DNA of 64,000 bases from Chitinophaga pinensis (lineage in GTDB: Bacteria; Bacteroidota; Bacteroidia; NS11-12g; UBA9320): the NCBI GenBank assembly GCA_945889315.1, contig CAMDBP010000001.1, forward strand, positions 45,005 through 109,004, in the 5' to 3' direction. Below the pieces are notes generated by a model, which saw only the letters and a list, made by a program, of their open reading frames with translations, was not told the origin of the DNA and searched no databases. Shown here one piece after another: positions 19,626-56,772 of the stretch (position 1 is its first letter; each line of letters begins with the position of its first letter). The translations under genes were made by a program, and so were the position numbers.

Positions 19626-20363
19626 ATGAAAAAAACCTTTACAATTCTCTTAAGTATTATTTCAACTATGTCTATTGCGCAACTAGACTGGGCCGTTAAA
19701 AGCATAGACAAACCTGTAGATTTATACACCAATGATGACGGAACGACGGAAGTTGTTGCGCAAGTAACATTAGAAAATCTGGGTGAAACCATCCCTGCAG
19801 GCGATACGTTCACCATTGCTTTAGCCATTTTTAGAGGAGGGGATGGAGCTCTTTTAGTTGCTTCACCAAACTATACTCTTTTAAACCCAAGTGAATCTGT
19901 AAAAGGAAGCATATTAACTACAGCAGAAATTAGCTTTAAAATTAATGCAGGGATTACAGGTTCAGTTGATATGCCTATTTTTATGGGTGCATTGAGTTAT
20001 CATAGAAATAGAACTAGTCCAAAAGAAGACATCGATTCTAACAACAATTTTCTTTTGAAGGAGATGAAATGGAAATCTATTGGCAAATTATCATTGAATA
20101 CGGTTGCTTTTGAAAACAATATTTCGGCATACCCTAACCCTGCAAATGCTACCATAAACGTTGCCTTAAATTATGTACAGCAGGGAGCTACTACTATTGA
20201 ACTTATAAACTTAAATGGACAAGTAGTAGTAAGCCAAAATGCGACCGATATGTTCAATACCAGCAATTCAATGGATGTTTCAAATCTGGAGAAAGGACTT
20301 TACATCTTAACAATAACGAATGGAGATGCTACGTATACTCGAAAAGTTAGTGTTACTCACTAA
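19626..20363 (+). CDS. T9SS type-A sorting-domain protein (secreted, function unknown)
   Basis: Signal peptide. C-terminal ~80 aa 'AYPNPANATINVALNY...IELINLNGQVVVSQN...LEKGLYILTITNGDATYTRKVSV' matches the Por-secretion C-terminal domain. Confidence 0.75.
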   Translation: MKKTFTILLSIISTMSIAQLDWAVKSIDKPVDLYTNDDGTTEVVAQVTLENLGETIPAGDTFTIALAIFRGGDGALLVASPNYTLLNPSESVKGSILTTAEISFKINAGITGSVDMPIFMGALSYHRNRTSPKEDIDSNNNFLLKEMKWKSIGKLSLNTVAFENNISAYPNPANATINVALNYVQQGATTIELINLNGQVVVSQNATDMFNTSNSMDVSNLEKGLYILTITNGDATYTRKVSVTH

Positions 20364-24322: not shown

Positions 24323-25186
24323 ATGAAAAAAAGCCTTTTCTTTTTTATCCTTTTAGCAACTACTAAGTTATGCCTAGCTCAAGACGTTGATTTGTTAGAT
24401 GAGCCAGAATTAGAAACTACAGATTATGCTACCGCCACATTTAAAACCAATAGAGTGGTAAATGGGCACAGCATCGAAACCGTAGCTAAAAATGAATTCG
24501 ATTTTAAAATCTCTCATCGATTCGGATTTTTAAGCGGGGGACCATATGATATGTTTGGACTTGATCAAGCCACTATGCGTATAGGCGGAGACTATGGAAT
24601 AACGGATAACTTAAACGTAGGACTAGGTAGAAGTACAGTAGACAAAACCTATGATGGATTCATAAAATACAAATTCCTGAAACAAAGCACTGGACTAAAA
24701 ACAATGCCCTTAACCGCCACTTGGATAAGTCATATGGGCATAACCACTTTAAAATGGCCGCAACCAAATCGTGAAAATTACTTTTCTAGTAGATTACATT
24801 ACACGCACCAACTATTAATTGCGCGAAAATTTACGGAAGGATTAAGTATTCAATTAAGCCCTACATTGGTGCATAAAAATATTGTCGATTCCACTAAATT
24901 TAAGAATGACATCTTATCGCTAGGAGTGGGTGTTAGACAGAAGCTTACCAAACGTACTACACTAAACGTGGAGTATTATTATGTACTGCCTAATCAATTG
25001 GAAGAAGATAAAACAAATGTGCTATCAGTAGGTTTTGACATAGAAACAGGGGGGCACGTTTTTCAACTATTTTTCACCAACTCAAGCGGACCCTTTGAAA
25101 AAGCATTTATTACAGATACAAAAGCAAAATGGCTTGATGGGAACATACGATTCGGATTTAATATTGCCAGAGTTTTTGATTTTTAG
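24323..25186 (+). CDS. DUF5777-like outer-membrane beta-barrel protein
   Basis: Signal peptide. 'FKTNRVVNGHSIETVAKNEFDFKISHRFG' N-terminal motif. Alternating amphipathic strands. Ends in aromatic residues (RVFDF). Confidence 0.45.
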   Translation: MKKSLFFFILLATTKLCLAQDVDLLDEPELETTDYATATFKTNRVVNGHSIETVAKNEFDFKISHRFGFLSGGPYDMFGLDQATMRIGGDYGITDNLNVGLGRSTVDKTYDGFIKYKFLKQSTGLKTMPLTATWISHMGITTLKWPQPNRENYFSSRLHYTHQLLIARKFTEGLSIQLSPTLVHKNIVDSTKFKNDILSLGVGVRQKLTKRTTLNVEYYYVLPNQLEEDKTNVLSVGFDIETGGHVFQLFFTNSSGPFEKAFITDTKAKWLDGNIRFGFNIARVFDF

Positions 25187-25241
25187 TATGTTTGATAGAA
25201 TATTTCCGACTGTTTTAACAGGACCCTAACTTAAAGAACGT

Positions 25242-27746
25242 ATTAAAAAGCTACTAATCATAACACTTACCTTGCTGTCAACTGTAGTCGTTGAAGCTAC
25301 CCACATTGTAGGAGGTGAGATATATTATCAGTTATTAAATGCAAACACTAATTCTTACAGAGTAACCGTCAATGTGTATTTTGATTGCTATAATGGCGAT
25401 CCAGACGCTATAGATTCTGATAAAACTATTTTCATTAGTACTTGGGACGCCAAAACCAATAACTTTATTTCCGATTTTACCTTAACAGGATCTGCCCCTA
25501 ATCGACTTAAAAGTACAAACTACGAATGCGTGAAACAGCCAAGTGGCATCTGTACAGACGCTTATGTATACACAGCTATTCGAACTATAAATCCAGGGAG
25601 CAATGGTGTAATTCTGGCATGGCAACGTTGCTGCAGAAATAACACCATAGACAATATTGTTAGTCCAGAAGCATCTGGTTTTACCGCATGGACTATCATA
25701 CCGCCAAAAGCTACAGCCAATTCAAGTGCATATTTTACAACAGTACCTCCGGTCTATATTTGCGTAGACGCTCCACTTACGCTTCAGCAACCGGCTACAG
25801 ATCCAAATGGGGACTCCTTAGTATATCTTCTAACAACTCCATATTTAGGTGCCAATCAAAATAGCCCAAGACCTAGTGCCGCAGGAGCATATGACAAACC
25901 CCCTTTCGCTGAATTAAATTGGAGCTCTAGTTATTCTAAATTTCTACAAATGAAGGGGAGCCCTTCTCTCAACATGAATTCATCAACGGGAGAAATAACC
26001 ATTACGCCTTCTGAAATAGGGCAATTCGTTGTTGGATTCACGGTTCAAGAATATAGAAATGGGAAACTTATTGGGGAAACCCGCCGCGACTACCAGTTTA
26101 ATGTAATACAATGTGAATTTGACATTCTTGCTAATTTTGATATACCTAACGGCACAACAGTAGGTGGAGCATACACCTTTGAATGCGGGGATACTGTTTG
26201 CATTCGAAATAAAAGTTATACTAAATTCCCCGCTAAAACTAAGTACTTTTGGGACTTTGGTGATCCTACAACTACACGTGATACGCTTACTACGTTTAGC
26301 TTAGCCGGCAATTTATGCTATACCTACCCCGGAAATGGAAATTACACCATAAGTTTAAAAGCCACTACGTCTATTTGTGAATCCAATTACAAATATGACG
26401 TGCGAATACGTTCTACCAAATCATTTGACTTAGGTCCTGACCTTATTTTTTGTGACGACTTTTCAATTCGATTAGACACTAAAACTGCAGACGCAGTCTC
26501 TGTAAAGTGGAATACCGGCCAAAGTGGATACCGTATAAATGTAAGTGATACCGGAAAATATGTTGCTACTGTTTCGTATGGAAATTGCAGTTACCTGGAT
26601 TCTGTTCACTTACGCTATAATAAAGTTCCTCCCCTTTCTATAACCAGAGATACACTTTTATGTGATACCGTAAATGTGCTTCTAGATGTAGGTGTGCCAG
26701 GACTTTTTTACCAATGGAGCACTAGCCCTCTAGACAACAAGCAAACTTTAAATGTGCGAGATACCGGAGAATATTCGGTTATCGTAAGAAACATAAACTG
26801 TTTTTCGTACGATACCGTTAGAATTTGGACCGCGACTGAACCAAAAATCGATGACCAGTTTTATTGCAATGAATTTACGTACGAAGCGGACGCTACCGCC
26901 ATAGAAGAAGCAGAATATAAATGGTCTACAGGAGAAACTACCCAAAAGGTTACGCTTACTCGAGCTGACAATTATTGGGTTGAAGTAAAACAAAGGCATT
27001 GTGTTAAAACAGATTCCTTTAGCATAACCAATCCCATAATTAATCTTGAGTTAGGCGTGGACAAACATTTCTGTGATAACATAAATGCAGAGCTGGATGC
27101 AGGACCTGACGGAATAACATACGACTGGAACACAGGAGCTACTACTCAAAAAATAAAAGTGAACCAGCCTGATACATTCAAAGTAACGGTGTATGATGAA
27201 TATGGATGTGAAGCCACAGATTCTGTGATTATATCTGTATCTCAATCACCAGAAGTTGACTTAGGTGACGACCTTACCATTTGCGTAAATAGCCCAACCA
27301 AAATTGAAGGACCCGCAGGATATGCGTATCAATGGAATACCGGATCTAAAGACCAGAGCATTTCCACTATTGACCAAGGCAAGTACTCACTCAAAATAAT
27401 AGATCAATTTGGCTGTATGGCTACAGATAGCTTGTATATCACGGTAGATCCTGAAGCGCTACCCAACGAACTTAATGTGCCTAGCGCCTTTAGTCCCAAT
27501 GACGACGGGCTTAATGAATTATTCCCGTTTACCCTACCAGTCTCTCAACCTTCTTATTACATTACTGTATTTTCTAGATGGGGAGAAAAAGTGTTTGATT
27601 CACGAGACGATAGTACTAAACCCAATTGGGACGGTTATTACCAAGGAGAAAGAGTGCCAAATCAATTGTACATCTATTTCATGTACTACCGAGGCTGTGA
27701 CGGCAATGCTCGCACCGCAAAAGGCAACGTATATCCGCTACGTTAA
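25242..27746 (+). CDS. T9SS type-B sorting-domain ('gliding motility-associated C-terminal domain', CHU_C-like) surface protein with five internal ~68-aa tandem repeats; start codon uncertain (ATT/ATA/TTG)
   Basis: C-terminus 'VPSAFSPNDDGLNELFPF...ITVFSRWGEKVFDS...WDGYYQGERVPNQLYIYFMYY...GNVYPLR' matches the type-B CTD. Five degenerate repeats (about 26424-27445) with pattern LG.D...C...L.....Y.W.TG..Q.I.V...G.Y.V.V....C...DS..I. The track ORF starts at TTG 25272, but the in-frame codons upstream (after stop 25227-25229) read 'ATT AAA AAG CTA CTA ATC ATA ACA CTT ACC TTG...' = (M)KKLLIITLTLLSTVVVEA, a textbook signal peptide. Confidence 0.7.
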   Translation: MKKLLIITLTLLSTVVVEATHIVGGEIYYQLLNANTNSYRVTVNVYFDCYNGDPDAIDSDKTIFISTWDAKTNNFISDFTLTGSAPNRLKSTNYECVKQPSGICTDAYVYTAIRTINPGSNGVILAWQRCCRNNTIDNIVSPEASGFTAWTIIPPKATANSSAYFTTVPPVYICVDAPLTLQQPATDPNGDSLVYLLTTPYLGANQNSPRPSAAGAYDKPPFAELNWSSSYSKFLQMKGSPSLNMNSSTGEITITPSEIGQFVVGFTVQEYRNGKLIGETRRDYQFNVIQCEFDILANFDIPNGTTVGGAYTFECGDTVCIRNKSYTKFPAKTKYFWDFGDPTTTRDTLTTFSLAGNLCYTYPGNGNYTISLKATTSICESNYKYDVRIRSTKSFDLGPDLIFCDDFSIRLDTKTADAVSVKWNTGQSGYRINVSDTGKYVATVSYGNCSYLDSVHLRYNKVPPLSITRDTLLCDTVNVLLDVGVPGLFYQWSTSPLDNKQTLNVRDTGEYSVIVRNINCFSYDTVRIWTATEPKIDDQFYCNEFTYEADATAIEEAEYKWSTGETTQKVTLTRADNYWVEVKQRHCVKTDSFSITNPIINLELGVDKHFCDNINAELDAGPDGITYDWNTGATTQKIKVNQPDTFKVTVYDEYGCEATDSVIISVSQSPEVDLGDDLTICVNSPTKIEGPAGYAYQWNTGSKDQSISTIDQGKYSLKIIDQFGCMATDSLYITVDPEALPNELNVPSAFSPNDDGLNELFPFTLPVSQPSYYITVFSRWGEKVFDSRDDSTKPNWDGYYQGERVPNQLYIYFMYYRGCDGNARTAKGNVYPLR

Positions 27747-32777: not shown

Positions 32778-33242
32778 ATGCAAGTTACAGAGGCCATATC
32801 GATATTCGAAAAAGTAGTTAAAGAACACTTAAACCTGACGCCAGAACAAATTCGTTGTGAGAACGACGGCGAATACTTAATACAACGAGGGGATGAAACG
32901 GAGCTGTACGTAGATATATGGCAACCTACCGAAACTACGCAATGGCAATACTTTGACCGACAAAAGATTGCAGGTATTTTTCAAATTGTTGCACCTATAT
33001 GCGAATATCCTGCCGATGAGCACTTAGCAATGTTTATGGAAGAATTGGCACACCTTAATTTTCATCTCTTTTCGGCATCCTTTATTGCTAATTCAGAACA
33101 ACGCGTAGTAAGCATTCAATTTAAACGTGTTCTTGAAGGCCTAAACGAAACCGAAGTGATAGAACCATTAGAAGCAGTAGGTTACTATGCAGAGAATCTG
33201 AAAGAATACCTTTCAGAAAAGTATCACGTAAAAAAAATCTAA
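32778..33242 (+). CDS. Hypothetical cytoplasmic protein (weak YbjN-like / chaperone-like pattern)
   Basis: 154 aa, acidic, no TM. Low-confidence resemblance to the YbjN 'sensory transduction regulator' family. Confidence 0.35.
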   Translation: MQVTEAISIFEKVVKEHLNLTPEQIRCENDGEYLIQRGDETELYVDIWQPTETTQWQYFDRQKIAGIFQIVAPICEYPADEHLAMFMEELAHLNFHLFSASFIANSEQRVVSIQFKRVLEGLNETEVIEPLEAVGYYAENLKEYLSEKYHVKKI

Positions 33243-33293
33243 CTCTCGGGCAACCTCCCTGAATCTGATTACATCTAAAACATATCCAGCGCA

Positions 33294-33836
33294 ATGAGCC
33301 CTAGTGAATCACACGATGAAATATCTTTGATTAAAGCTTGCAGCAATGGAGACCATAACGCTTTTAAAAAAATTTACGATATACACTCAGGAAACATGTA
33401 CAGCATTTGCTTACGATATATGACCAACGAAGACGAAGCCAAAGATGCTTTGCAAGAAGGCTTTATCAAGGTTTTTAACGGCATTAGCAAGTTCCAATTT
33501 ACGGGTAGTTTCGAGGGTTGGATGAAGCGTATTTTTGTAAATACCAGCATAGAACAAATTCGCAAACGTAAGTTACATTTTGACGTGTCTGAATTAAATA
33601 CGAATGAGCTTCCGCTTACCTCCCGTATTGAAACAGGTACCATGGACGCAGAAAAAATGATGCGTTTAGTACAACAACTACCATTGGGCTATCGCACGGT
33701 TTTTAACATGTTTGTAATTGACGGATATAGCCACAAAGAAATAAGCGACTATCTCAATATTAATGAGAATACTTCTAAGTCTCAATTGTTTAAAGCCCGC
33801 AAGCAATTACAGATTTGGTTAAAAGACTGGTTTTAA
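33294..33836 (+). CDS. ECF-subfamily RNA polymerase sigma-70 factor
   Basis: Region 2 'EDEAKDALQEGFIKVFNGISKF...FEGWMKRIFVNTSIEQIRKRK'. Region 4 HTH 'YSHKEISDYLNINENTSKSQLFKARKQLQIWL'. Confidence 0.9.
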   Translation: MSPSESHDEISLIKACSNGDHNAFKKIYDIHSGNMYSICLRYMTNEDEAKDALQEGFIKVFNGISKFQFTGSFEGWMKRIFVNTSIEQIRKRKLHFDVSELNTNELPLTSRIETGTMDAEKMMRLVQQLPLGYRTVFNMFVIDGYSHKEISDYLNINENTSKSQLFKARKQLQIWLKDWF

Positions 33837-33839
33837 ACA

Positions 33840-35066
33840 ATGCCGAAATTCAACGACATATCTGATTTTGAACAGTTGCTCAAAGAGCAAATGTCAGGAC
33901 ATAGTACGCCACCGCCAACAGACGCTTGGACGGCTATTTCGTCGTCTACAGCTCAAGTGGGAGGAATCATTAATTCGCTTTCAACCTATTTCAATGCCAG
34001 TGTAACACTTGTAAAAACTGGCTTAATCGCAGGTAGTATTATAGCTCTAGGCACTGTTAGCTATTTTTCAATTATCAATTCAACGGATATTCCGAATAAT
34101 AAGCAAGAAAACAATGATAGCATACAAAAAGCTAACTCCAATGATTCACAACCAACTTTCGAAACAATAGAATCATCGGATAATGAGAGAAAGTCACTCA
34201 CTCAAAATATAGCCAGTGGACGTATCGATTCTAAAACAAATCATACTAGTGCTGTAAGCTCTCTTGTAACTTCTGATACTTCGTCTCCCGCAACTAAAAA
34301 ATACACAACTCAACCGAGCAAAATCGTTGAAAACAAAGGGGGAAACGAATTCCGAATCACTGCAACTAATTATAACCCATGTGTTGGAGAAACGGTAGTT
34401 CTTAAATCATCAGAAAAGGGAAATTGGTTTTTAAACGAAATTAAAGTCGCCAGCAACACGGCCGCTTATAATGTCCAATGTCGAGCGACAGGTAGTTATG
34501 TGTATCACTTCAAAACGGCAGATAGAACCATTCACACCACATTGAATATTTCTGAATTTAATGGAAATATCGTAAAGGAACAATTGGAAGACGGGCATTA
34601 TTCATTTAGCTTGAGTAATCAAAATCTAATTGCGAACTGGTATATCAATGGCAAATTATACAGCACCAATGCTCCGTTCATTCATGTTGCCCTCGAAACG
34701 GTCGGTAAACATGAGATTAAAGCGGCAATAATTAATCATCCTTGTGCTAAAACATTAACTTTTGATGTTCAATTAGCTCCCATCGGTCACTTTGAAGCTA
34801 TAAATATTTTTACCGTAGGAAACGATGGTTTGAATGATACCTACAGAGTGAAAATTTCGGGTTACGATAATTTTTCTATACAGATTTTTAATAGTAATTC
34901 TAATCTAGTATTCAGCACTTTAGATCCAGAAGAAGGTTGGGATGGGCGAATAAATAACACAGGAATAGAATGCCCTCAAGGAGAATATTTTGCTCGCGTT
35001 AGCTACAAGCTTAAAGGCGAATTACCGCAACTAAAAAATATAAAATTAACACTATTACGTCCATAA
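33840..35066 (+). CDS. Anti-sigma-factor-like single-pass membrane protein whose extracytoplasmic part ends in a T9SS type-B (CHU_C-like) sorting domain
   Basis: Starts 4 nt after the ECF sigma stop. N-terminal ~50 aa 'DFEQLLKEQMSGHSTPPPTDAWTAISS' resembles the P..AW..I cytoplasmic N-domains of Bacteroidota ECF partner proteins. One TM helix (LVKTGLIAGSIIALGTVSYFSII). Ser/Thr-rich linker, Ig/PKD-like middle. C-terminus 'INIFTVGNDGLNDTYRV...IQIFNSNSNLVFST...WDGRINNTGIECPQGEYFARVSYKL' matches the type-B CTD of the neighbouring adhesins. Confidence 0.6.
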   Translation: MPKFNDISDFEQLLKEQMSGHSTPPPTDAWTAISSSTAQVGGIINSLSTYFNASVTLVKTGLIAGSIIALGTVSYFSIINSTDIPNNKQENNDSIQKANSNDSQPTFETIESSDNERKSLTQNIASGRIDSKTNHTSAVSSLVTSDTSSPATKKYTTQPSKIVENKGGNEFRITATNYNPCVGETVVLKSSEKGNWFLNEIKVASNTAAYNVQCRATGSYVYHFKTADRTIHTTLNISEFNGNIVKEQLEDGHYSFSLSNQNLIANWYINGKLYSTNAPFIHVALETVGKHEIKAAIINHPCAKTLTFDVQLAPIGHFEAINIFTVGNDGLNDTYRVKISGYDNFSIQIFNSNSNLVFSTLDPEEGWDGRINNTGIECPQGEYFARVSYKLKGELPQLKNIKLTLLRP

Positions 35067-35145
35067 TTTGAAAATTAACATGAACCTCATTAAATTTACC
35101 AACTTTTTGGATTTTAAAAACAAGAATAACAAACCGTATAAACGT

Positions 35146-38100
35146 ATGAATAAATCATTCAATTCAGCTAGCCTTACCAGGTATTTAGCCTCATTTGTGT
35201 TACTGGTGACAAGCTTTCTGGCTTACTCACAGTGTAACCCTAAAGTCATGTACAATGGAAATTGGTCCTCAACAGGGGTGTTTTGTTTAGGAGAAATTAT
35301 AAGTTTCGATGCAAACTCTCCAGGTTACAACAGTACAACTGTTTGGGATTTTGGCGATGCTGGACCAGGTACAAGTACGTCAGAAAAACCATCTTACAGC
35401 TTCGCCCAAGCAGGAACGTACACTGTAAAATATACGGGTACAGGAGGTGCAGGAACATGCACAGGCAACGTGACGGTAATTGTAAGGCCTTCACCTGAAA
35501 TACACGTTCGCCAACTCACAAACGACACACAGTGTTACTCTGGCAACAGCTTTTGCTTTAGAGACTCAATTGTAGCGCCAGACGGTTCTATTGAGCGACT
35601 TGTAATGCTATTTAGTGACGGTACTAAAGTGGATACCACTTTTACTGGAGGCGCTGGTAAACTAAAAATATTTGACTTTTGTGTTACCATAAACGATCCT
35701 GCAGGGGGATTCTTTGACATGGTAATTGAAGCATATGACACCAGTGGATGTTTAACCAAATACACTTTTACTGATTATATCTATGTTCATCCAAAGTTAG
35801 GAATTAAGTTTGATAATATTACGCCTAAGCCCAACCCAGGTTGTGACTCCACGCTTGGGGTGTTTCTAAATACATCACTTATCGCATTAGCAGATATTGA
35901 TACCTTCATGTGGGATTTTGGGGATGGTAATATTCAAAGAGGTTCTTCTACAGTTAATACGCAATGGTGGTTTGGCATTGACGGGAAAGACACGATAAAA
36001 CATATGTATACTATCAATGGTACCTTTAACGGAACATTGTCTGTTTCTGCCTATGGATGTAGTGAGACCTTTACTTGGAAAAATGCAGTTACCAACTTTG
36101 TGGTAGATCCTAAAATTGTATCTACACCTAATCCTGCATGTGTCGCCGATAACCCCATCGAGTTTTCGGTAACCAATTTTAATACTGCAGGTATGTCTGC
36201 ATTCTTATGGAACTTTGGTGATCCTCCATCGGGACCTGCCAATTTTGATAAAGATAATTTTAGTCCGACAGCGCACGGCTACGGACCTGGACCATGGATG
36301 ATTAGTTTACGTATTCAGCAAGGCCCATGTGATGTAACTATTTATGATACTATTCAGGTTATAGGTCCAATCTCAACTATTGGTGTTCCCAATGACCAAG
36401 TTGCTTATAATCAAACCTATCAGTGTTTGATTACCGACTCTGTTCAAATGGTGAATAACTCCAGTTATTATCAAAATGATTACAATCAATTAGATGAGGA
36501 TTCTATCGTTTTTTATTTTGATTATAGTTTTGATTACAACTTTGACAACACCACTGGAATTACTAAATTTATTGTAAGGAAATGGAAAGAAGATAAAAAT
36601 GGCAATAAAATATTGTCGGCCGATACGTTCCCGAAAACAGATACACTATCTTTTATGGGCTACAAAGCTTATTTTGATACGGCCAAAGACTCTATTGCTG
36701 TAATAAATGGTAAAGATACCGTTTGGCAAAAATACTACTACAACGCCACTAGTTATAGAGGCGGCATTAACGGCCGTAAGCGTTGGGTTTTTAGATACGT
36801 TCCACCTCCTGGAGGAAAAGGAGTAGGAACTGGTAATCAAACTGCCATCGATCCCACTCTTAACGTTCGAGATTATAACCCTAATGTTTGGAGAGTATGG
36901 ACTATGGATGACAGATATGCTCCACAATGTACTACAGACAGTAGACCCTGGGTAAATAGAAATGTTGGCATTAATTGTAATTGGAGTATTGATAGTGTTC
37001 CTATACACTGGTATACCCCTTGGGATGAAGTTTACAGAACGCTTAATAATGGACAAAACTATAGAAGACCAAAAGTTGACAAACGCTTGTTCAAAGCAGA
37101 TACGATCTGTTATGAGGTGAATGTTTACTCTGATTCCTTCATGGTTGTACCTAGATTTATTTATATCAATGTTCCTGCAGATTCTGCATACACCTACTTC
37201 TTGCCGTATGACGGACTAAACCCAGCGGTGAATGGTTATAGAGACACCATCGTTTTGACAGCATCGTCACTTGGTCGAAAAATACACTATATGGATAGCT
37301 CTCACTTGAGTGTTTTTCAACAAGAAACGTATATCGTAATCAATAGACCTCCAAGTAGATTTATCGGAACTGAGTTTTACTATGATGCTGCTGTAGATTC
37401 TTTTTATGCAGTAAATAATTTAACCGATACCACCGTACTTGCTGCCGATCCATTAGGACGATGGAACAAAACTGCTGGCAACGGAACTACCAGATGGTCT
37501 ACCACCACTAGCGAAATGAGTTTCTACGTTCCGGATGGTGTAACCATCACCACTATAAATCTTCCAGCACCGGGTGGTGGAGGTGGAGTGCCTACTCCAG
37601 GCCCTTCGTACACCGGACCTAAGACCATTATTTTACCTGCAAATACGCAATTTACATTGCAATCTAAAGATTCATTGTTTAGTTTAAAGCACATACAAAC
37701 CGTGGCTAGAACCACCACAAATGCGCTTCCATCTTCATATCCATACAAAGATATGTTTGGTAAAACTAGATTTGGTTCAGCCATTTTTGTGGATTCTGCA
37801 TTACATAGAGAAGATTGGTTTGATAATAATGCTGTTTGTTTCAATGTAATATTGTGGCAAAAAGACACTATTCATCCGTTACTTTGTGAGTCTCAAGCAA
37901 CTAAATCATTAGCACTTGTTCCGCCTAATGCAAAAGGATTAGAGTGGGCAGATGGCACCCCATGTCCATTTACGGGTAACTTCCAATACATATTAGGATT
38001 TGATATGGCAGATACTAAACCAGGTTGTACACAATCGTGGTTTGCCGTAAACTACGATACCTTCCAATTGCCAACCAATCAGACAGGTTCTTGGGCCGTG

Positions 38101-41100
38101 TATAACGGTGGGGGTGTATTAGCACCAAGTAGACCAGGAAGTGCACTTCCATTCCAATTACCGTATAGCATAGTAGGAAATACCGGGACACAATTCTTAA
38201 AAGGATATACTCCTGGACAAATTGGTACAGGACAACGTTCACCTGCAGGATCATTTACCGTTGGTTTAATTGTAGGAAATGGTGTACCTCAAGCAAATGG
38301 ATTGCCTGCTTGCTTAGATACCGCTTACTATCCTGATATGTTCAGAATTCTATATATGAATCCTGCATTTACTCTATTAAACAGCTCACCACACATGTGT
38401 GCCGGCGCAACTGCTTATTTCCAACTAGAAGATCCTATACAAGATAGTATTACAGCACTTAGATGGAACTGGGGTTACCCAGGTAATGTTGGCCGTGGAC
38501 CTCAACAAGGTGGTTATTCTGAAGAGTTTTATTACTACAAAGAATACAACGGACCACAAGCTAATAGAAATGACGCTGGTATCGCTTATAATGGTGAAAA
38601 ATGGTTGTATAATTTTATCGTTAGATATAATATAGATGACCTTTCGGGTACTAAACTGATCGATACTATTGTGGTAAACATTATCAAGAAATGGGAAGTA
38701 GTCGCTTCTAAAAAGCAAGTTAGTAAGGAAGTAATAGACCTTTTCCTTCGTGAAAACTTAATTTATCAAGACATCCCAGCGGAAGACATTCCATTTTACT
38801 TAGGTGATGGTTCTAACAATTGTGTTGATACTACTAGTTTTGGCTCATTCTTCCAATTTGGAATTAAAGCATACCATCAAAAATCTGATCCAGATGTATG
38901 GCAAGTTGGTAACAAACGTTACTTATGTAACACTTATAACCCAGCTATAGTATCTGACACCACATTCTTCCTGAATGGCTCTGGCAATAGAGTTCCTTCA
39001 TTACAATATCCAAGTATAGATTCATTTACAATTGTTCAAAACGTAACAAATCGTAACAAGGCTAATTGTACCAGTTCTGTTGAAGTTACTCAAATTCTTC
39101 ACTTCAGAGATTCTTCTCTTAAAGGGTATGATACGTATGAAAGAGATTACGATAATGACGGGGTGATAGATGAAGTAATTACCGGCGTATATAAACATAC
39201 TTACAGATATCCTGTGGTGCGAGCAATTGATCCGTGTGATCCTTCGGTAAAAGATACCATTTGGGTTGCCGCAAATGCACCTATGACACCTAACTTTAGA
39301 TTAAACAACACCACGGGTTGTGGTGGATTTGGTGCAATATCTATGAATGTTGGATTCTACAATGACTTCTGGATGGATTCAACGGCTATTTGCCAAGGAT
39401 TGACATTATTTGTTGAAGATTCTATTAGATACTACCAATTAGGTGAGCAGGATCCTCCTACTTACCCAATTCACGATTTTGCACTATGGCAAGATCCTGC
39501 TAGATTTATTCCTAACATTGAAACCGTTTATTATGATTGGGACAGTACCGACGGTGTGTGGGATAATTACCAGTCTATTGTACCGAATCATTTCTACCCA
39601 GACCCAGGAAAATATACCATTACGATCATACCTAAAGATAGTACCGGCTGTAGAGATACCTCGTATATTGATGTAACCATTTCTAAAGTAAACCCTGTTA
39701 TTTCATTTGCCACATCAATCGTTAATTGTGCTTCGATAGTTGATTTCAAAGATTCTACCTGGTTTGTAGATCCTTGCGACACATTATGTCCAAATGGAAA
39801 CAACGTATCGTGTGAAAAATTACTTACCTGGAATTGGGATTTCGGAGACGGCACGCGAAACAGTAAACTTCAAAATCCTTCGCATAACTTTACTTCGAGT
39901 GGTAGCTATGACATTACACTCACGGTTACGTCTAAGCTAGGTTGTGAAGAAACTATTATCCGAACAATCTATATACCTGGTCCACAGCCTGATTTTGAAT
40001 TTGACTTAGATGAGTTTAATTTAAACGATACAGCTACTATATGCGTTGGCGATTCGCTGCTACTCGTGAACTTAAGCAAAGGAGACATTTCTGCACCTAA
40101 GTTTATAATGGACTGGGGAGATAAGACCTTTTCTCAACCAACTAATACAACGGGTAAATACGGACACACGTATACTACTGCTGGAACATACTTATTATTC
40201 TTAACACAAGAAGACGTAATACCCGGTACTAGCAATCGTTGTCAAAGAATGTTCCCGGATACCAATCCTGATATTCAAAATCAGCGACGTATAGTTGTGA
40301 TTGTAAAACCATTGCCAGAAGTAAATATTACAGCATCAAAAGACACTGTTTGTTTAGGCGAAGAAATCACCTTTAGTGGAACACTTGATCCAAGATACAC
40401 CCGAGTTAAATGGGATATGGCTAAGTTAGACACTATAAACGGAATTGTTCCTCAGGATACAGTAGTTAAATATATCTTTAAACAGCCTGGAACATTCACC
40501 GTAGTGCTAAGACCAGAGTATGATTTAAAACCTCGTTGTTGGGCAACCGATTCAATCGATGTATTTGTACAATCTGTAACTGCAGCATTTGATATTGTTC
40601 CTGACGGAGCACCTAACTTCTGCTTTACAAATACTTCTACAACTAGTCCATCTGGCAATGTCTTGACCTATGAATGGACGTTTGAAGATGAGACTCCTCC
40701 AGGACCAGGAAGTAGCACGGATACAGATCCTTGTTACAATTGGAACGAGCACGTAGGTATTTATGAGATTTGTCTTATCGCTACGGATGCTTTAGGTTGT
40801 AAAGACACGGTATGCCAAGATATCGAAAATGTATTCCAAACAAAACTTGTTCCTTACAATGTGTTTACGCCAGATGGTAAAGGTCTAAACGAAACATTTG
40901 TAATTGAAGGAGAAAGCTTACAGGAGTATCATATCAAAATCTACAATCGTTGGGGAGAATTAGTATTTGAAACTGAAGATGTGAAAAATTCTTGGAATGG
41001 TAAAGTTAAGAATAGTGGTAACGATTGTCCAGAAGGCACATACTTCTACGTAATTAAATACATGTTTGAATTTGACGACAAGTCGGAAACAATCGAAGGA

Positions 41101-41121
41101 ACCGTTGACATTATCCGATAA
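35146..41121 (+). CDS. Giant (about 1990-2017 aa) PKD-repeat cell-surface protein with a T9SS type-B sorting domain (SprB-like adhesin class)
   Basis: Signal peptide MNKSFNSASLTRYLASFVLLVTSFLAYSQ; the track start 35068 adds 26 aa before it. Many PKD-type 'WDFGDG/WNFGD' motifs. Gly/Pro linker 'PAPGGGGGVPTPGPS'. C-terminus 'YNVFTPDGKGLNETFVIEG...IKIYNRWGELVFE...WNGKVKNSGNDCPEGTYFYVIKY' is the type-B CTD. Confidence 0.85.
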   Translation: MNKSFNSASLTRYLASFVLLVTSFLAYSQCNPKVMYNGNWSSTGVFCLGEIISFDANSPGYNSTTVWDFGDAGPGTSTSEKPSYSFAQAGTYTVKYTGTGGAGTCTGNVTVIVRPSPEIHVRQLTNDTQCYSGNSFCFRDSIVAPDGSIERLVMLFSDGTKVDTTFTGGAGKLKIFDFCVTINDPAGGFFDMVIEAYDTSGCLTKYTFTDYIYVHPKLGIKFDNITPKPNPGCDSTLGVFLNTSLIALADIDTFMWDFGDGNIQRGSSTVNTQWWFGIDGKDTIKHMYTINGTFNGTLSVSAYGCSETFTWKNAVTNFVVDPKIVSTPNPACVADNPIEFSVTNFNTAGMSAFLWNFGDPPSGPANFDKDNFSPTAHGYGPGPWMISLRIQQGPCDVTIYDTIQVIGPISTIGVPNDQVAYNQTYQCLITDSVQMVNNSSYYQNDYNQLDEDSIVFYFDYSFDYNFDNTTGITKFIVRKWKEDKNGNKILSADTFPKTDTLSFMGYKAYFDTAKDSIAVINGKDTVWQKYYYNATSYRGGINGRKRWVFRYVPPPGGKGVGTGNQTAIDPTLNVRDYNPNVWRVWTMDDRYAPQCTTDSRPWVNRNVGINCNWSIDSVPIHWYTPWDEVYRTLNNGQNYRRPKVDKRLFKADTICYEVNVYSDSFMVVPRFIYINVPADSAYTYFLPYDGLNPAVNGYRDTIVLTASSLGRKIHYMDSSHLSVFQQETYIVINRPPSRFIGTEFYYDAAVDSFYAVNNLTDTTVLAADPLGRWNKTAGNGTTRWSTTTSEMSFYVPDGVTITTINLPAPGGGGGVPTPGPSYTGPKTIILPANTQFTLQSKDSLFSLKHIQTVARTTTNALPSSYPYKDMFGKTRFGSAIFVDSALHREDWFDNNAVCFNVILWQKDTIHPLLCESQATKSLALVPPNAKGLEWADGTPCPFTGNFQYILGFDMADTKPGCTQSWFAVNYDTFQLPTNQTGSWAVYNGGGVLAPSRPGSALPFQLPYSIVGNTGTQFLKGYTPGQIGTGQRSPAGSFTVGLIVGNGVPQANGLPACLDTAYYPDMFRILYMNPAFTLLNSSPHMCAGATAYFQLEDPIQDSITALRWNWGYPGNVGRGPQQGGYSEEFYYYKEYNGPQANRNDAGIAYNGEKWLYNFIVRYNIDDLSGTKLIDTIVVNIIKKWEVVASKKQVSKEVIDLFLRENLIYQDIPAEDIPFYLGDGSNNCVDTTSFGSFFQFGIKAYHQKSDPDVWQVGNKRYLCNTYNPAIVSDTTFFLNGSGNRVPSLQYPSIDSFTIVQNVTNRNKANCTSSVEVTQILHFRDSSLKGYDTYERDYDNDGVIDEVITGVYKHTYRYPVVRAIDPCDPSVKDTIWVAANAPMTPNFRLNNTTGCGGFGAISMNVGFYNDFWMDSTAICQGLTLFVEDSIRYYQLGEQDPPTYPIHDFALWQDPARFIPNIETVYYDWDSTDGVWDNYQSIVPNHFYPDPGKYTITIIPKDSTGCRDTSYIDVTISKVNPVISFATSIVNCASIVDFKDSTWFVDPCDTLCPNGNNVSCEKLLTWNWDFGDGTRNSKLQNPSHNFTSSGSYDITLTVTSKLGCEETIIRTIYIPGPQPDFEFDLDEFNLNDTATICVGDSLLLVNLSKGDISAPKFIMDWGDKTFSQPTNTTGKYGHTYTTAGTYLLFLTQEDVIPGTSNRCQRMFPDTNPDIQNQRRIVVIVKPLPEVNITASKDTVCLGEEITFSGTLDPRYTRVKWDMAKLDTINGIVPQDTVVKYIFKQPGTFTVVLRPEYDLKPRCWATDSIDVFVQSVTAAFDIVPDGAPNFCFTNTSTTSPSGNVLTYEWTFEDETPPGPGSSTDTDPCYNWNEHVGIYEICLIATDALGCKDTVCQDIENVFQTKLVPYNVFTPDGKGLNETFVIEGESLQEYHIKIYNRWGELVFETEDVKNSWNGKVKNSGNDCPEGTYFYVIKYMFEFDDKSETIEGTVDIIR

Positions 41122-41151: not shown

Positions 41152-41188
41152 AAACTGCCTTGACGAATAACGTCAAGGCAGTTTTTTT
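41152..41188 (+). terminator. Rho-independent terminator after the giant adhesin gene
   Basis: AAACTGCCTTGACG-aataa-CGTCAAGGCAGTTTTTTTAT: 14-bp perfect stem plus T7. Confidence 0.85.
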
Positions 41189-41368: not shown

Positions 41369-44023
41369 ATGGGAAAATCAATACATAATTATTTGCGCTT
41401 GAGCGGTTTAGAGCCGATGGTTCAAACTCCAAATATTAATTTTATTAATATTGGAGAGCGCACAAATGTTACAGGTTCTAAGGCTTTTGCGAATCTTATC
41501 CTCAATAATAAATATGACGAAGCACTCTCTGTAGCTCGATCTCAAGTAGAAAATGGTGCACAGGTCATAGATGTGAATATGGACGAAGGAATGCTGGATG
41601 GCAAAGCCGCTATGGTTAAATTTCTAAACTTAATAGCCGCTGAACCAGACATTAGTCGAGTACCTGTGATGATTGACTCTAGCAAGTGGGATATTATTGA
41701 GGCCGGACTTAAAGTTATCCAAGGCAAAGGAATTGTAAATTCTATCAGCCTAAAAGATGGAGAAGAGGCATTTATTGCCAGAGCCGAAAAAATAAAACGC
41801 TATGGGGCTGCCACAGTTGTGATGGCATTTGACGAAAATGGCCAAGCAGATTCATACGAAAAACGAATTGCTATCTGTGAAAGATGCTATCACATACTCA
41901 CTCAGAAAGTAAACTTCCCTCCATCCGACATCATTTTTGACCCTAACATTTTAACTGTCGCTACAGGTATTGAAGAACATAATAATTATGCGGTTGACTT
42001 TATAAAAGCAACCAAATGGATTAAAGAAAATTTGCCATATGCTAAAGTAAGTGGCGGGGTAAGCAATATATCATTCAGTTTTAGGGGGAATAACATCGTG
42101 CGGGAAGCAATGCACTCTGCCTTCTTATATCATGCTATTCAAGCGGGATTAGACATGGGTATCGTGAATGCTGGGATGATAGAAGTTTATGAAGAGATCC
42201 CAAAAGAACTATTAATAAGGGTAGAAGATGTTTTGCTTAATCGCAGAGATGACGCCACTGAACGATTAGTAGATTTTGCCGAGACAGTAAAAGGTGATGG
42301 CAAAAAGATAGTACTTGACTTAAGCTGGAGAGATCAAAGTGTTGAAGAACGACTTAAACACTCCCTTATAAAAGGTATTACAGATTACATAGATGAAGAT
42401 ACGGAAGAAGCACGTCTAAACTATGCTAAACCCTTACACGTCATTGAAGGACCGCTAATGGCCGGCATGAACGTAGTAGGCGACTTATTTGGTGCGGGCA
42501 AAATGTTCTTACCACAGGTAGTGAAAAGTGCCCGTGTGATGAAAAAATCCGTAGCGTATCTAAATCCTTACCTTGAAGCAGACAAAAGTGAAGGCGATAC
42601 GCAAGGTAAAATACTAATGGCCACCGTTAAGGGAGACGTTCATGACATTGGAAAAAACATTGTAGGTGTTGTATTGGCTTGCAACAATTATGAAATAATT
42701 GACTTAGGCGTTATGGTTCCCGCAAATAAGATCTTGGATGAAGCTATAAAGCATAATGTAGACGTGATTGGGCTCAGTGGACTCATCACTCCCAGCTTAG
42801 ACGAGATGGTAGACGTAGCCGCTGAAATGGAACGTAGAGGCATGAAATTACCTTTACTTATTGGCGGAGCAACTACGAGCAGAGTACATACTGCTGTAAA
42901 GGTGGCACCTCATTATAGCGGACCGGTGGTACACGTGCTGGATGCATCGCGGTCTGTTCCTGTAGCAGGTAAACTTATCGGGCAAAGTACCCGAGAATTA
43001 TTTCAAGCTGAGATAAAAGCAGAGTATACTGAGTTAGCTATACAGCATGCTGCTCGTCAAGCGGATAAAGTAATTTTACCATGGGGCGAAGCCAATGCTA
43101 ATAAGTTAAAATTAGATTGGGATACCTTTACTCCTGTACCCCCGCCACAACTTGGAATAACTGTTTTTGATGACGTTGATTTAAATGAAATTAGGGGCTT
43201 TATAGATTGGACGCCATTCTTCTCGACTTGGGAATTACGCGGGAAATATCCTAACATTTTCCAAGATGAATATGTGGGTGATGAAGCTAAGAAACTTTTT
43301 GCGGATGCAGTGGTCATGTTAGATGACATAATAACTCACAAAAAACTTCAAGCAAAGGCTGTATTAGGCGTATTCGAAGCAAATGAAGAAAATGGCGATG
43401 TACTGCTTACAAATGGGACTAAATTTAATTTCCTAAGACAGCAACGCAAAATGGGAAATGACATTCCTAACATCTCACTTGCCGACTATATAGCACCCAA
43501 AAACAGTGGCAAAAAAGATTACCTCGGAGCCTTTGCGGTAACCGCAGGCATTGGCATAGAGTCACTTATTGACGCATTTGAAGCAGACCATGATGATTAC
43601 AACTCCATAATGGTGAAGGCAATTGCCGATAGGCTCGCAGAAGCAATGGCTGAATTCATGCATCAAAAAATGCGAAAAGAAATTTGGGGCTACGCTGCAG
43701 AAGAAACACTAACCAACGAAGAGCTCATATACGAAAAATACCAAGGTATTCGTCCCGCAGCTGGTTATCCCGCAAGTCCGGATCATACCGAAAAAGAAAC
43801 GTTATGGAAACTGTTAGATGTGGAGAATAAAACAGGAATCAGCCTTACTGAAAGCTATGCAATGTACCCTACAGCTTCAGTTTCTGGATTATATTTTGCT
43901 CATCCAGAAGCTAAATACTTTGCCGTAGGCAAGATAGATACAACTCAAGTAGCAGATTATGCAGAACGAAAAGGTGCTGATTTCAATGCTACCAAAAAAT
44001 GGCTCGGTCCTAATTTATTTTAG
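41369..44023 (+). CDS. metH: Methionine synthase, B12-dependent: pterin-binding, cobalamin-binding and AdoMet-reactivation modules (C-terminal ~3/4 of MetH; Hcy module encoded separately)
   Basis: 884 aa. Begins at the MetH linker ('LRLSGLEP'). Pterin-binding barrel. B12-binding '[25 protein letters not shown]' (DxHxxG...S...GG). C-terminal activation domain '[12 protein letters not shown]...'. Confidence 0.9.
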
Positions 44024-55334: not shown

Positions 55335-56772
55335 TTAGTATTTTAGAGATTAATTGATTTTGGTTAATACTATTTTTATTAAGCTTATGCAGTTCAACAG
55401 AAAAGAGCACTAAATTCACTTGATTTTTATTATTTCTTCTTCTAATAGCAATGCACCTTGGACCACTCCAGCCACCGCTAGGTGTAAGTTGAGCAGTGTA
55501 AAACACTTCTGCATTTACTCCTGGGTAAAAAGGATCTGCAGCGAGTAGAAAATTAGCAGGTTGTACCACAGGGTATCCGGCATCTTTACTTATCGCAGCA
55601 CTGTCGTTGGTAAAAAAAGCTTGACCTCTAGCCGAGCTAAAACTATCAATTGATAGCACATCTCCAATTATGCTTAAATCGGCTCCGTTAGAGAACGACG
55701 AGGAAACCAGTACTTTTTTATTATTGTCAATTAGTTGTTGAATGACAGGTGCCGCAAAATCCAATAAAGTGCCATCAAGACCAGAGAAAGGATTACTTGT
55801 CGTGCCTTCTTCGGTATGAAAGAAAATTTTATCGTATTCCATTGCAAGAAGTCGGAAGGTAGGATCCCAAAACTTAGGTTGGTATTTGCCGCCATCTCGA
55901 GCATAATCTACTACGTCTAGATTTTTATAATTGGTTGTAATAAGGGCATTGTATATAGCAGACAGACTTTGATTGTGTCCACCTACTGCCAGTAAATCAC
56001 TTGTTTTAGATCTGGTGTAAATATTTATGGTACTATCTACTTTACTTTCTGAATTAGCAATGTCGGATACTTTAAGTTGGATTATATTATTCCCCCCATT
56101 TACAAAACCATCAATAATAATCCTGGCATTTTTTTCAATTCCGTAATACAGTTTCGCATTGCCTTTGCCTAAAGCAGAGGTGTTTTCTGCGATGAGTGAA
56201 ATTAATTTTTGATTGAGATCAATCTCAGACCACGCTCCGTCATTGGCGCGTATAAAGCCTTTTTTTAGCGTAGCATCTCCATCTGGATCACTGGCACGGT
56301 AGCGAAAAGATATAACTAGATTTGTAGTGTCCTCAGTTACACTTGCTTTGTCAAATGACACTACAGGAGGACTATTTTTAAGTGGCACTTTTATGAAAGC
56401 AGGAGTCGGATCAGCAACGTTTTCATCGTCCACCGCTCTCACGTAAAACTCAATATCTGTTGAGTCTGCGTCTGGATTAATATCAAATAAAAATGTACTA
56501 TCTTGTGATTGAGTTTTAAACCACTCACCTTCATTTATTTTGATTTCGTAATGCTGAACGTAGCCATCTACATCTGTACCAAACCATGTGAGGTTAACTG
56601 TGCTATTTAGCCGTTTGTCTCCAGAAAGGTTTATGTTTTCTACAGATAATTTAGTTTCGGGAGCCATGTTTGGCAACTCCTCTCCCGTTTTACAGGAAAA
56701 AGTAAAAACAAGAAGACCGAGCACGAAAGTGCTCAGTCCTTTTGTTGAATAAGATAAGATACTATTTATCAT
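55315..56772 (-). CDS. Hypothetical lipoprotein (485 aa) in the T9SS-cargo / TonB-receptor operon
   Basis: Lipobox LVFTFSC. No recognizable catalytic motifs. 1-nt TAATG overlap with the upstream gene and 20-nt overlap with the TonB receptor start. Confidence 0.5.
   Translation of the reverse strand: MINSILSYSTKGLSTFVLGLLVFTFSCKTGEELPNMAPETKLSVENINLSGDKRLNSTVNLTWFGTDVDGYVQHYEIKINEGEWFKTQSQDSTFLFDINPDADSTDIEFYVRAVDDENVADPTPAFIKVPLKNSPPVVSFDKASVTEDTTNLVISFRYRASDPDGDATLKKGFIRANDGAWSEIDLNQKLISLIAENTSALGKGNAKLYYGIEKNARIIIDGFVNGGNNIIQLKVSDIANSESKVDSTINIYTRSKTSDLLAVGGHNQSLSAIYNALITTNYKNLDVVDYARDGGKYQPKFWDPTFRLLAMEYDKIFFHTEEGTTSNPFSGLDGTLLDFAAPVIQQLIDNNKKVLVSSSFSNGADLSIIGDVLSIDSFSSARGQAFFTNDSAAISKDAGYPVVQPANFLLAADPFYPGVNAEVFYTAQLTPSGGWSGPRCIAIRRRNNKNQVNLVLFSVELHKLNKNSINQNQLISKILNEAFNW

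Follow-up and report, generated by a model that had tools for sequence, protein, structure and literature searches.

What role should be assigned to a protein that is encoded directly behind a sigma factor and ends in the same kind of sorting signal as the giant adhesin encoded next to it? The question is raised by a locus in a stretch of 64,000 nucleotides (64 kb, hereafter the window) of contig CAMDBP010000001.1, deposited as Chitinophaga pinensis. The locus comprises a gene for an extracytoplasmic function (ECF) sigma factor of 180 amino acids (aa; 33294-33836), a gene for a protein of 408 aa, here called the partner (33840-35066), and an open reading frame (ORF) of 2017 aa for a giant protein (35068-41121), all on the forward strand (+), as are the features below unless stated otherwise. 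We favor, with modest confidence, the explanation that the partner is an anti-sigma factor of the Dma type, which carries a specialized C-terminal domain (CTD) of the T9SS (type IX secretion system) at its outer-membrane end and controls the sigma factor that drives the adhesin operon.

An earlier note on this DNA had described the three-gene arrangement, and it holds: the ORFs occupy the coordinates given above, their domains are recognized by Pfam, and the three co-directional genes lie between an ECF-type promoter and a terminator. The promoter (33250-33277; GCAACC, N16, CATCTA) is located 17 nt upstream of the sigma ATG. Because the relaxed pattern GCAAC-N16-19-TCTA has a single match in the window, with 2.1 expected by chance (not significant alone), the promoter claim rests on conservation. 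GCAACC-N16/17-(C)(A/G)TCTA occupies the same position in the related loci L081-L089, L001, L002, L003, L011, L090, and L092, variants of the motif occur in L091 and L094, and altogether the promoter is kept in at least 15 loci. A motif scan of the window ruled out a further ECF-type promoter, whether ahead of the adhesin gene or elsewhere in that stretch.

The interval between the partner stop codon and the giant gene measures 13 nt if translation begins at ATG 35080, which is probably the true start rather than 35068, and it contains neither a terminator nor the ECF motif. Behind the giant gene, the strong terminator announced by the earlier note is present as a hairpin with a 14-bp stem, 7 GC pairs, and a T-run (41152-41184). 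It is followed by an S-adenosylmethionine (SAM) riboswitch (RF00162, 41215-41335; 70.6 bits, gathering score 44.4) and, directly 3' of the riboswitch, by metH, the gene for B12-dependent methionine synthase (41369-44023), which is a separate riboswitch-controlled unit beyond the adhesin terminator. This succession of terminator and riboswitch-led unit makes the 3' boundary of the operon clear. Given the conserved promoter, the 13-nt gap, and the lack of an internal terminator or motif, sigma factor, partner, and adhesin are predicted to form one operon switched on by the sigma factor itself, from a promoter that is presumed to be autoregulatory and with the giant adhesin as the presumed output. 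In the window, the sigma and partner ORFs share one reading frame across a 3-nt gap, with TAA-ACA alone between them (33834-33842, +). The corresponding ORFs of relatives overlap by 1-11 nt in different frames, and for this reason the shared frame is probably incidental and not a read-through fusion.

The sigma factor consists of the sigma2 and sigma4 regions only (Pfam Sigma70_r2, 48 bits, and Sigma70_r4_2, 59 bits), its nearest solved structures are SigW, SigE, and RpoE, and it is 61-85% conserved among orthologs. With sigma2 and sigma4 only, a predicted anti-sigma factor downstream, and a conserved promoter upstream, the locus displays the features of an autoregulated operon of a group 4 ECF sigma factor.

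Is the partner, then, built like an anti-sigma factor? In an alignment of 18 orthologs, which share 31-100% identity and all measure 406-422 aa, the best-conserved parts are the two ends, namely an N-terminal module (N-module; 58% mean pairwise identity) and the CTD (57%). The N-module (residues 1-50, 33840-33989; ISxFE..LLK....HSTPPP..W) is predicted to be cytoplasmic and is presumed to bind the sigma factor; its residues I7, S8, E11, P24, and P26 are invariant. It is followed by a predicted signal-anchor transmembrane (TM) helix in N-in/C-out orientation (residues 55-79, 34002-34076), in which Lys59, at the cytoplasmic edge, is invariant among the orthologs. This helix is the sole hydrophobic segment of the protein, with a Kyte-Doolittle 19-mer maximum of 1.85 at residues 61-79, and the hydropathy profile has no hydrophobic segment near the N-terminus. 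In 67 family members, the median start of the hydrophobic core is residue 57, compared with residue 6 in the conventional CTD proteins of the same data set. The flanks of the anchor in the 67 proteins carry net charges of +0.72 on the N side and -1.70 on the C side, the N flank being the more positive in 57 of the 67, in accord with the positive-inside rule. The hydrophobic segment is 19-23 residues long, stands after the conserved 50-aa domain, and has no A-x-A/Q-type cleavage site behind it. Hydropathy and charge bias therefore point to a signal anchor rather than a cleavable signal peptide, in agreement with the short cytoplasmic N-domain and single TM helix that the earlier note had proposed.

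Behind the helix extends a hypervariable, polar, presumably disordered periplasmic tether (residues 80-170, 34077-34349). Its mean identity is 13%, its length is kept at 91-104 aa, and 16% of its residues are hydrophobic. The description of this linker as Ser/Thr-rich was correct in that both residues are frequent, but the composition is rich in T, E, K, S, and N and not purely Ser/Thr. AlphaFold2 (AF2), run on the ortholog alignment, assigns residues 30-168 a predicted local distance difference test score (pLDDT) below 50. The next part, which had been read as immunoglobulin (Ig)-like, resolves into two Ig-like beta-sandwich domains (residues 171-318, 34350-34793) with pLDDT >90 and 37% identity among orthologs; a Foldseek search of the partner model against the PDB returned generic Ig/Fn3 arrays only. 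These domains are optional, since the partners in L003, L011, L091, and L092 pass straight from the linker to the CTD without them. N-module, TM helix, and CTD are always present in the family, as is a spacer between helix and CTD, which has no fewer than 109 residues in all 63 partners measured. The anatomy of a predicted single-pass, N-in anti-sigma factor is supported by these features.

To which known proteins could such a molecule be related? The Dma (dual membrane-spanning anti-sigma) family is specific to Bacteroidota; its proteins begin with a sigma-binding domain, continue through a TM helix and a long disordered tether, and end in an OMP_b-brl_2 barrel (PMC10927553; Dma2, PMC13088901). 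Its members pair with ECF21 sigma factors and have been found experimentally to span both membranes, and Dma1 and Reo bind their sigma factors through the N-terminus (PMC10927553, PMC13088901). The N-module profile of the window family, searched against 1.84 billion proteins, matches P0175, P0181, P0191, and P0194 with E-values of 1e-12 to 8e-5. In each of these proteins, 4-6 N-modules in tandem precede a TM helix and a long polar linker, and PF13568 (OMP_b-brl_2) matches above its gathering score. Two barrel-type proteins were looked up in their loci (L093:2993-4882 and L094:5001-6929), and each directly follows an ECF sigma gene.

A reciprocal test was run because the top profile match, P0150, proved to be a repeat-accumulation artifact. 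A hidden Markov model (HMM) of the barrel proteins' repeats only, searched against 4412 ORFs from the window and the retrieved loci, ranked its two source proteins first and after them, before any of the remaining ORFs, CTD-type partners only, at residues ~1-35 and with E-values of 3e-9 to 0.08. Other candidates fell away: P0150, P0182, P0200, and P0206 are false positives as N-module proteins (repeat accumulation or TPR), and P0212 and P0204, which contain repeated N-modules, have C-termini that match no family and are not claimed as barrels. Repeated N-modules were also noted for P0179, P0207, and P0208. The N-module copies are ~35 residues long and occur 4-6 in tandem before the TM helix in barrel-type relatives, two in some CTD-type partners, and once in the window partner. 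One anti-sigma molecule could hold several sigma factors, if each copy binds one.

The sigma factors point in the same direction. The window sigma factor is 39-48% identical to the sigma factors of other CTD-type and barrel-type partners and 20-26% identical to unrelated ECF sigma factors, and the sigma factors of both partner types form one clade in a crude neighbor-joining tree. The GCAACC -35 box is common to the barrel-type locus L094 and the CTD-type loci. Other ECF sigma factors in the retrieved loci have RskA-type or unrelated partners and are uninformative.

The partner thus shares with the Dma proteins an N-terminal module (homologous at the family level), a single N-in TM helix and a long disordered tether (as judged by hydropathy, charge, and AF2), a gene directly after an ECF sigma factor that clusters with those of barrel-type partners, and an occurrence in Bacteroidota. 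The differences lie at the other end of the molecule and in the output. Where Dma proteins have an 8-stranded barrel, the partners carry a type-B CTD behind zero to two Ig-like domains; no barrel family matches the window partner, whose C-terminus consists of the Ig-like domains and CHU_C. The Dma regulon concerns vesiculation, whereas the presumed output of the partner operon is a giant T9SS adhesin. Judged by these sequence comparisons, the 408-aa protein is likely to be a Dma-type anti-sigma factor, with a kinship that holds at the family level; BT_4721/Reo were compared by layout only.

The arrangement recurs well beyond the window. An exhaustive HMMER search with the N-terminal profile among 1.84 billion representative proteins gave 69 matches at E <= 0.001. 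About 35 of these are orthologs, and the more remote ones include at least 18 proteins that share the layout at a length of 285-488 aa. CHU_C scored above the gathering score in all eight of the remote proteins tested, and N-module and CTD are combined in at least 45 representative clusters (50% identity). Other searches were less productive: a contig scan of the genome collection with the full-length partner alignment was swamped by generic CTD matches and gave no full-length relatives, and a word-indexed search with a diverse N-module alignment gave 5 short fragments only. All of the carriers found are uncultured metagenome-assembled genomes or metagenome contigs.

Mining the retrieved loci for sigma genes yielded L001, L002, L003, L011, and L061, none of which is syntenic with the window. 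L001, L003, and L061 contain a sigma gene, a partner with N-module, TM helix, linker, and CTD, and then 1-2 giant CTD proteins, and L002 and L011 contain sigma factor plus partner. Three remote partners that were looked up (L090, L091, and L092) each stand directly after an ECF sigma gene and are followed by a protein of at least 1003 aa in L090, a CdiI-like gene in L091, and a PKD/CHU_C protein of 1831 aa in L092. ECF-adjacent proteins combining an N-terminal segment, a TM helix, and a CTD, whose occurrence elsewhere the earlier note had raised as a question, are therefore present both in the clusters counted above and in several non-syntenic loci. In every locus examined, non-syntenic ones included, the sigma gene is immediately upstream of the partner gene, and the two overlap or abut. 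Of 8 informative lineages, 6 have giant type-B cargo behind the partner, a giant CTD protein standing there in L001, L003, L061, L083-L089, and L092, and the order of sigma factor, partner, and giant cargo is kept among orthologs down to 31% partner identity. Recurrence in non-syntenic loci and in distant orthologs indicates that the arrangement is more than chance.

These results bear on the objection that the partner has no anti-sigma role and is instead a small surface protein or T9SS cargo, endowed with an unusually long N-terminal leader and adjacent to a sigma gene by accident. Databases do label the relatives only as a "gliding motility-associated C-terminal domain" protein or as hypothetical, probably because the score of the relevant CTD model (TIGR04131, below) falls just under its cutoff. 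In addition, the N-module has no Pfam model and its profile no PDB match, and the curated anti-sigma domains (zf-HC2/RsrA-like ASD, RskA, RseA_N, and FecR) gave no Pfam or NCBIfam match to the partner at E <= 1-10, so that a curated anti-sigma N-domain, one of the earlier note's proposed tests, was not recovered. The objection is nevertheless very improbable in our judgment. The N-terminal 50 residues, a mere leader under this account, are the best-conserved part of the protein and are homologous to those of barrel-type proteins that also stand behind ECF sigma factors; the gene adjoins the sigma gene wherever the pair was seen, syntenic or not; and the hydrophobic segment is an anchor of 19-23 residues that begins near residue 57, with flank charges favoring N-in.

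If the partner is an anti-sigma factor, why does it end like a T9SS cargo? Its C-terminus (residues 319-408 plus the stop codon, 34794-35066) had been called a type-B CTD, and CHU_C/PF13585 bears this out with 50.0 bits at residues 320-390 (cutoff 27). The NCBIfam model TIGR04131 narrowly misses, at 34.2 bits for the partner with a cutoff of 35; the giant protein reaches 43.6 bits. AF2 models the domain with pLDDT 85-90. Like SprB and other type-B cargo (PMC9143113, PMC12618676), the partner has a PF13585/TIGR04131-type domain with FTPNGDGxND, an invariant W(D/N)G, and GxY, three blocks that are retained throughout the partner CTDs, and its gene sits beside a bona fide type-B cargo gene. It differs from such cargo in that a cytoplasmic domain with a signal anchor takes the place of a cleavable signal peptide, and in lacking the RWG block, the last-strand Gly, and an adjacent shuttle gene.

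A real coupling of the partner to the T9SS falls, in our estimate, a little short of an even chance, and several of the results that weigh against the favored explanation concern this part of it. We aligned 173 non-identical type-B CTDs, 65 from proteins with the N-module and 108 from proteins without it. The Trp of the "(N/D)RWG" block occurs in none of the 65 and in 98 of the 108 (Fisher p ~2e-37, a value that overstates independence, the sequences being related). After reduction at 60% identity to 44 partner-class and 91 conventional CTDs, the frequencies fall from conventional to partner class from 0.90 to 0.23 for R, from 0.92 to 0.00 for W, and from 0.99 to 0.55 for G of this block, and from 0.87 to 0.20 for the last-strand Gly. 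By Pfam, the partner C-terminus is a genuine type-B CTD, and by this alignment it is placed in a distinct, RWG-less subclass. Nor does it co-vary with the adhesin CTD next to it, to which it is about 29-31% identical; it groups with the orthologous partner CTDs (46-54% identity). Recent copying or co-evolution of the two domains was rejected on the basis of these values (~29% identity, partner CTDs grouping together).

Further points on this side come from the rules of T9SS export. According to Paillat et al. 2025 (PMC12618676), a Sec signal peptide is common to all T9SS effectors; the partner, by hydropathy, has no cleavable one. Type-B CTDs need cognate PorP/SprF-like shuttles, some "orphan" cargoes sharing an unlinked shuttle, and five conserved motifs are each necessary for secretion through the SprB CTD (PMC12618676). 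Those motifs, A-E, are defined in a figure of that study; the blocks of the partner CTD are named here by their residues and not by those letters. The Pfam annotation of genes in the window region and in the related loci revealed no PorP/SprF-like gene, and for this reason both partner and adhesin would be "orphan" cargoes. The remaining counterpoints concern the other parts of the explanation. AF2 confidence at the partner N-terminus is low (pLDDT 50-62). In the reciprocal HMM search the window protein itself ranks 21st of 4412, with E ~1 over residues 10-34, and homology is consequently firm for the family and by way of the orthologs, and not for the window sequence alone. Gene order among close orthologs is weak evidence because their neighborhoods are syntenic throughout, and L011 and L091 have no adhesin behind the partner.

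The peculiarities of the CTD would find an explanation if the partner were a classical single-pass anti-sigma factor whose CTD-like fold, no longer with any role in the T9SS, had been co-opted for sensing or binding in the periplasm; the signal would then be a periplasmic or envelope cue, and the adhesin simply the regulon. The separate subclass without the Trp (0 of 65) and largely without the last-strand Gly, the necessity of every conserved type-B motif for SprB CTD secretion, and the lack of both a signal peptide and a nearby cognate shuttle gene all speak for such a co-option, as does the faster divergence of partner CTDs between lineages (24-33% identity) compared with adhesin CTDs (40-51%). 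We regard it as unlikely, if a serious contender. Most signature positions (FTPNGDGxND, W(D/N)G, and GxY) are strongly constrained, no periplasmic module other than the CTD is constant, the Ig domains being variable, type-B cargo is co-transcribed in most lineages, and Dma proteins, its homologs, do extend to the outer membrane (PMC10927553). Moreover, the Trp is also missing from 10 of the 108 conventional CTD proteins, which bear signal peptides, and its loss is for that reason no proof of lost T9SS recognition or of secretion incompetence. A related substitution, "RSG" for RWG, was seen in small Prevotellaceae proteins (~220 aa; L078:9470-10294 and L068:9620-10294) with a signal peptide and a type-B CTD. 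L078 had been wrongly classed as a partner through an ORF-extension artifact.

Another account keeps the T9SS and moves it to the end of the process, with the CTD serving as a disposal tag: an unrelated signal would trigger site-1 cleavage, and the T9SS would export the freed periplasmic fragment, making activation irreversible and clearing the fragment without creating the signal. A cleaved fragment would indeed be a C-terminal CTD piece free of any anchor, just as T9SS cargo normally is (PMC12618676), and C-terminal fragments of Dma1 have been found in outer-membrane vesicles (PMC10927553). We find this account quite improbable, as it leaves unexplained both the divergence of the CTD at RWG and the long tether of conserved length.

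Returning to the Dma-type anti-sigma factor with a specialized T9SS CTD, the following mechanism can be proposed. The cytoplasmic N-module of ~50 residues would hold the co-translated ECF sigma factor at the inner membrane, in which the single signal-anchor helix would fix the partner. The disordered tether of ~90 residues and the two Ig-like domains would carry the C-terminus across the periplasm, for which, by simple geometry, they should be long enough. There the specialized type-B CTD, in place of the Dma barrel, would dock to or be captured by a T9SS component of the outer membrane, for example the translocon or a PorP/SprF-like shuttle. A change in this contact would lead to proteolysis of the anti-sigma factor, as in other single-pass anti-sigma factors and as suggested for Dma1 (PMC10927553). 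The freed sigma factor would then transcribe the sigma/anti-sigma/adhesin operon from the GCAACC-N16-CATCTA promoter. The presence of type-B cargo behind the partner in most lineages links the CTD of the anti-sigma factor to a cargo with the same kind of signal.

A stronger version, which we advance only tentatively and think rather doubtful, has the T9SS or gliding apparatus actuate the anti-sigma factor directly. A free shuttle of the PorP/SprF type, or else the translocon, would capture the CTD, and since the protein cannot leave the inner membrane, a pull or a stalled engagement would expose the tethered partner to proteolysis and free the sigma factor. In that case, the giant adhesin would be made only when secretion or shuttle capacity is available, and the system would amount to a FlgM-like secretion checkpoint, or to a mechanosensor coupled to the moving GldK/SprF track, on a Dma scaffold.

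How far do known systems anticipate such a design? FlgM, which controls sigma-28, is a soluble secreted anti-sigma factor that leaves the cytoplasm entirely through a type III system. Direct actuation by the T9SS would have its nearest precedent here, in that an anti-sigma factor bears a secretion signal and a working export machine turns on genes for late or exported structural proteins. The two differ in that only the periplasmic part of the partner could be engaged by the T9SS, and for this reason release of the sigma factor would still need proteolysis. FecR, in the FecR/FecA system, is an inner-membrane anti-sigma factor whose periplasmic C-terminus contacts an outer-membrane protein and which controls an ECF sigma factor. 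The partner would likewise reach from the inner membrane to an outer-membrane protein with its periplasmic C-terminus. It differs in having no FecR or DUF4974 domain and a disordered tether, and its presumed contact is a T9SS component and not a TonB-dependent transducer. Signaling of the FecR/FecA type is mentioned in the discussion of the Dma1 study (PMC10927553). In the PorA/PorXY-SigP system of P. gingivalis (PMC7712824), a CTD-bearing protein also feeds information from the T9SS into an ECF sigma pathway, but PorA is a secreted surface protein whose action passes through a two-component system and involves no sigma-factor binding of its own, and SigP has no such anti-sigma factor.

The closest precedent for the trans-envelope idea put forward in the earlier note is the Dma family itself, which spans both membranes and binds sigma factors through the N-terminus (PMC10927553). 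That note was unaware of any description of this architecture. We likewise found, in the searchable literature, no Dma-type anti-sigma factor with a type-B CTD at its end and a co-transcribed gene for giant type-B cargo, no paper that combines Dma1 and the T9SS, and no mention of the T9SS in Pardue 2024 (PMC10927553) or in the Dma2 paper (PMC13088901); what had been overlooked is the Dma family and, as a secreted anti-sigma factor, FlgM. Operons of an ECF sigma factor and its anti-sigma factor are already known, as is the Dma scaffold that spans the envelope, and the Dma family, together with the FlgM precedent, lowers the conceptual novelty. PorXY-SigP of P. gingivalis is the main system known in Bacteroidota for matching the expression of giant T9SS adhesins to secretion or gliding capacity, and here one sigma factor, one anti-sigma factor, and one cargo make up a concrete, widespread, and compact candidate in which the candidate anti-sigma factor itself bears the cargo's kind of sorting signal. 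This suggests that adhesin expression is wired to the secretion machinery. The Dma principle is broadened as well: the scaffold appears to have exchangeable modules, its outer-membrane end being formed by a barrel in some cases and by a T9SS sorting domain in others. The RWG-less subclass of CTDs offers a natural variant for separating T9SS recognition from translocation.

The CTD of the cargo is itself conventional. The giant protein, which had been described as PKD-rich with a type-B CTD, contains seven PKD_4 stretches and CHU_C at 78 bits in Pfam, and its CTD keeps RWG. Its N-terminus carries a conserved extension of ~25 residues (..KFTNF..) before the signal peptide, seen in the window (35080-35230, +) and in L081-L084, and reminiscent of the extended signal peptides known from secreted proteins of very great size. 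The signal peptides of these adhesins end in A-x-S/A-Q|C (...LAYSQ|C in the window), resembling the "Q-rule" of Bacteroidetes.

Upstream of the sigma gene and outside the transcript from the ECF promoter lies a gene for a cytoplasmic protein of 154 aa (32778-33242), which may be a fourth component of the cassette. It shows 75% mean column identity among 8 orthologs. Its gene always directly precedes the ECF promoter and the sigma gene, and homologs do so even in two non-syntenic loci, L090 (954-1412, 5e-43) and L092 (7880-8377, 2e-33). The protein has no Pfam, NCBIfam, or PDB match, and its single-sequence AF2 model is unusable (pLDDT 44). The gene carries its own TTATTTTTG box, which resembles the -7 promoter element of Bacteroidetes.

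The window also contains an 824-aa protein to which the earlier note had attributed the same kind of CTD, correctly so (CHU_C, 48.5 bits). Its start, placed at 25242, needs revision: no ATG, GTG, or TTG occurs between the upstream stop codon (25228-25230) and TTG 25272, the first canonical start, from which the gene extends to 27746. A signal-peptide-like stretch (IKKLLIITLTLLSTVVVEA) is encoded from ATT 25242 (25228-25275, +), ahead of that first canonical start, which suggests that the gene uses a non-canonical start codon. Immediately upstream lies a gene for a DUF5777 beta-barrel membrane protein (24323-25186), and the pair is conserved in L081-L089. By analogy with SprF/SprB, DUF5777 and the 824-aa protein could be a shuttle/cargo pair, DUF5777 not being of the PorP/SprF family. 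Finally, type-A sorting domains (Por_Secre_tail) are encoded at 19626-20363 (+, 62 bits) and at 56772-58985 on the reverse strand (-, 48 bits). The two type-A and three type-B CTD proteins in the window show that the organism makes extensive use of the T9SS.

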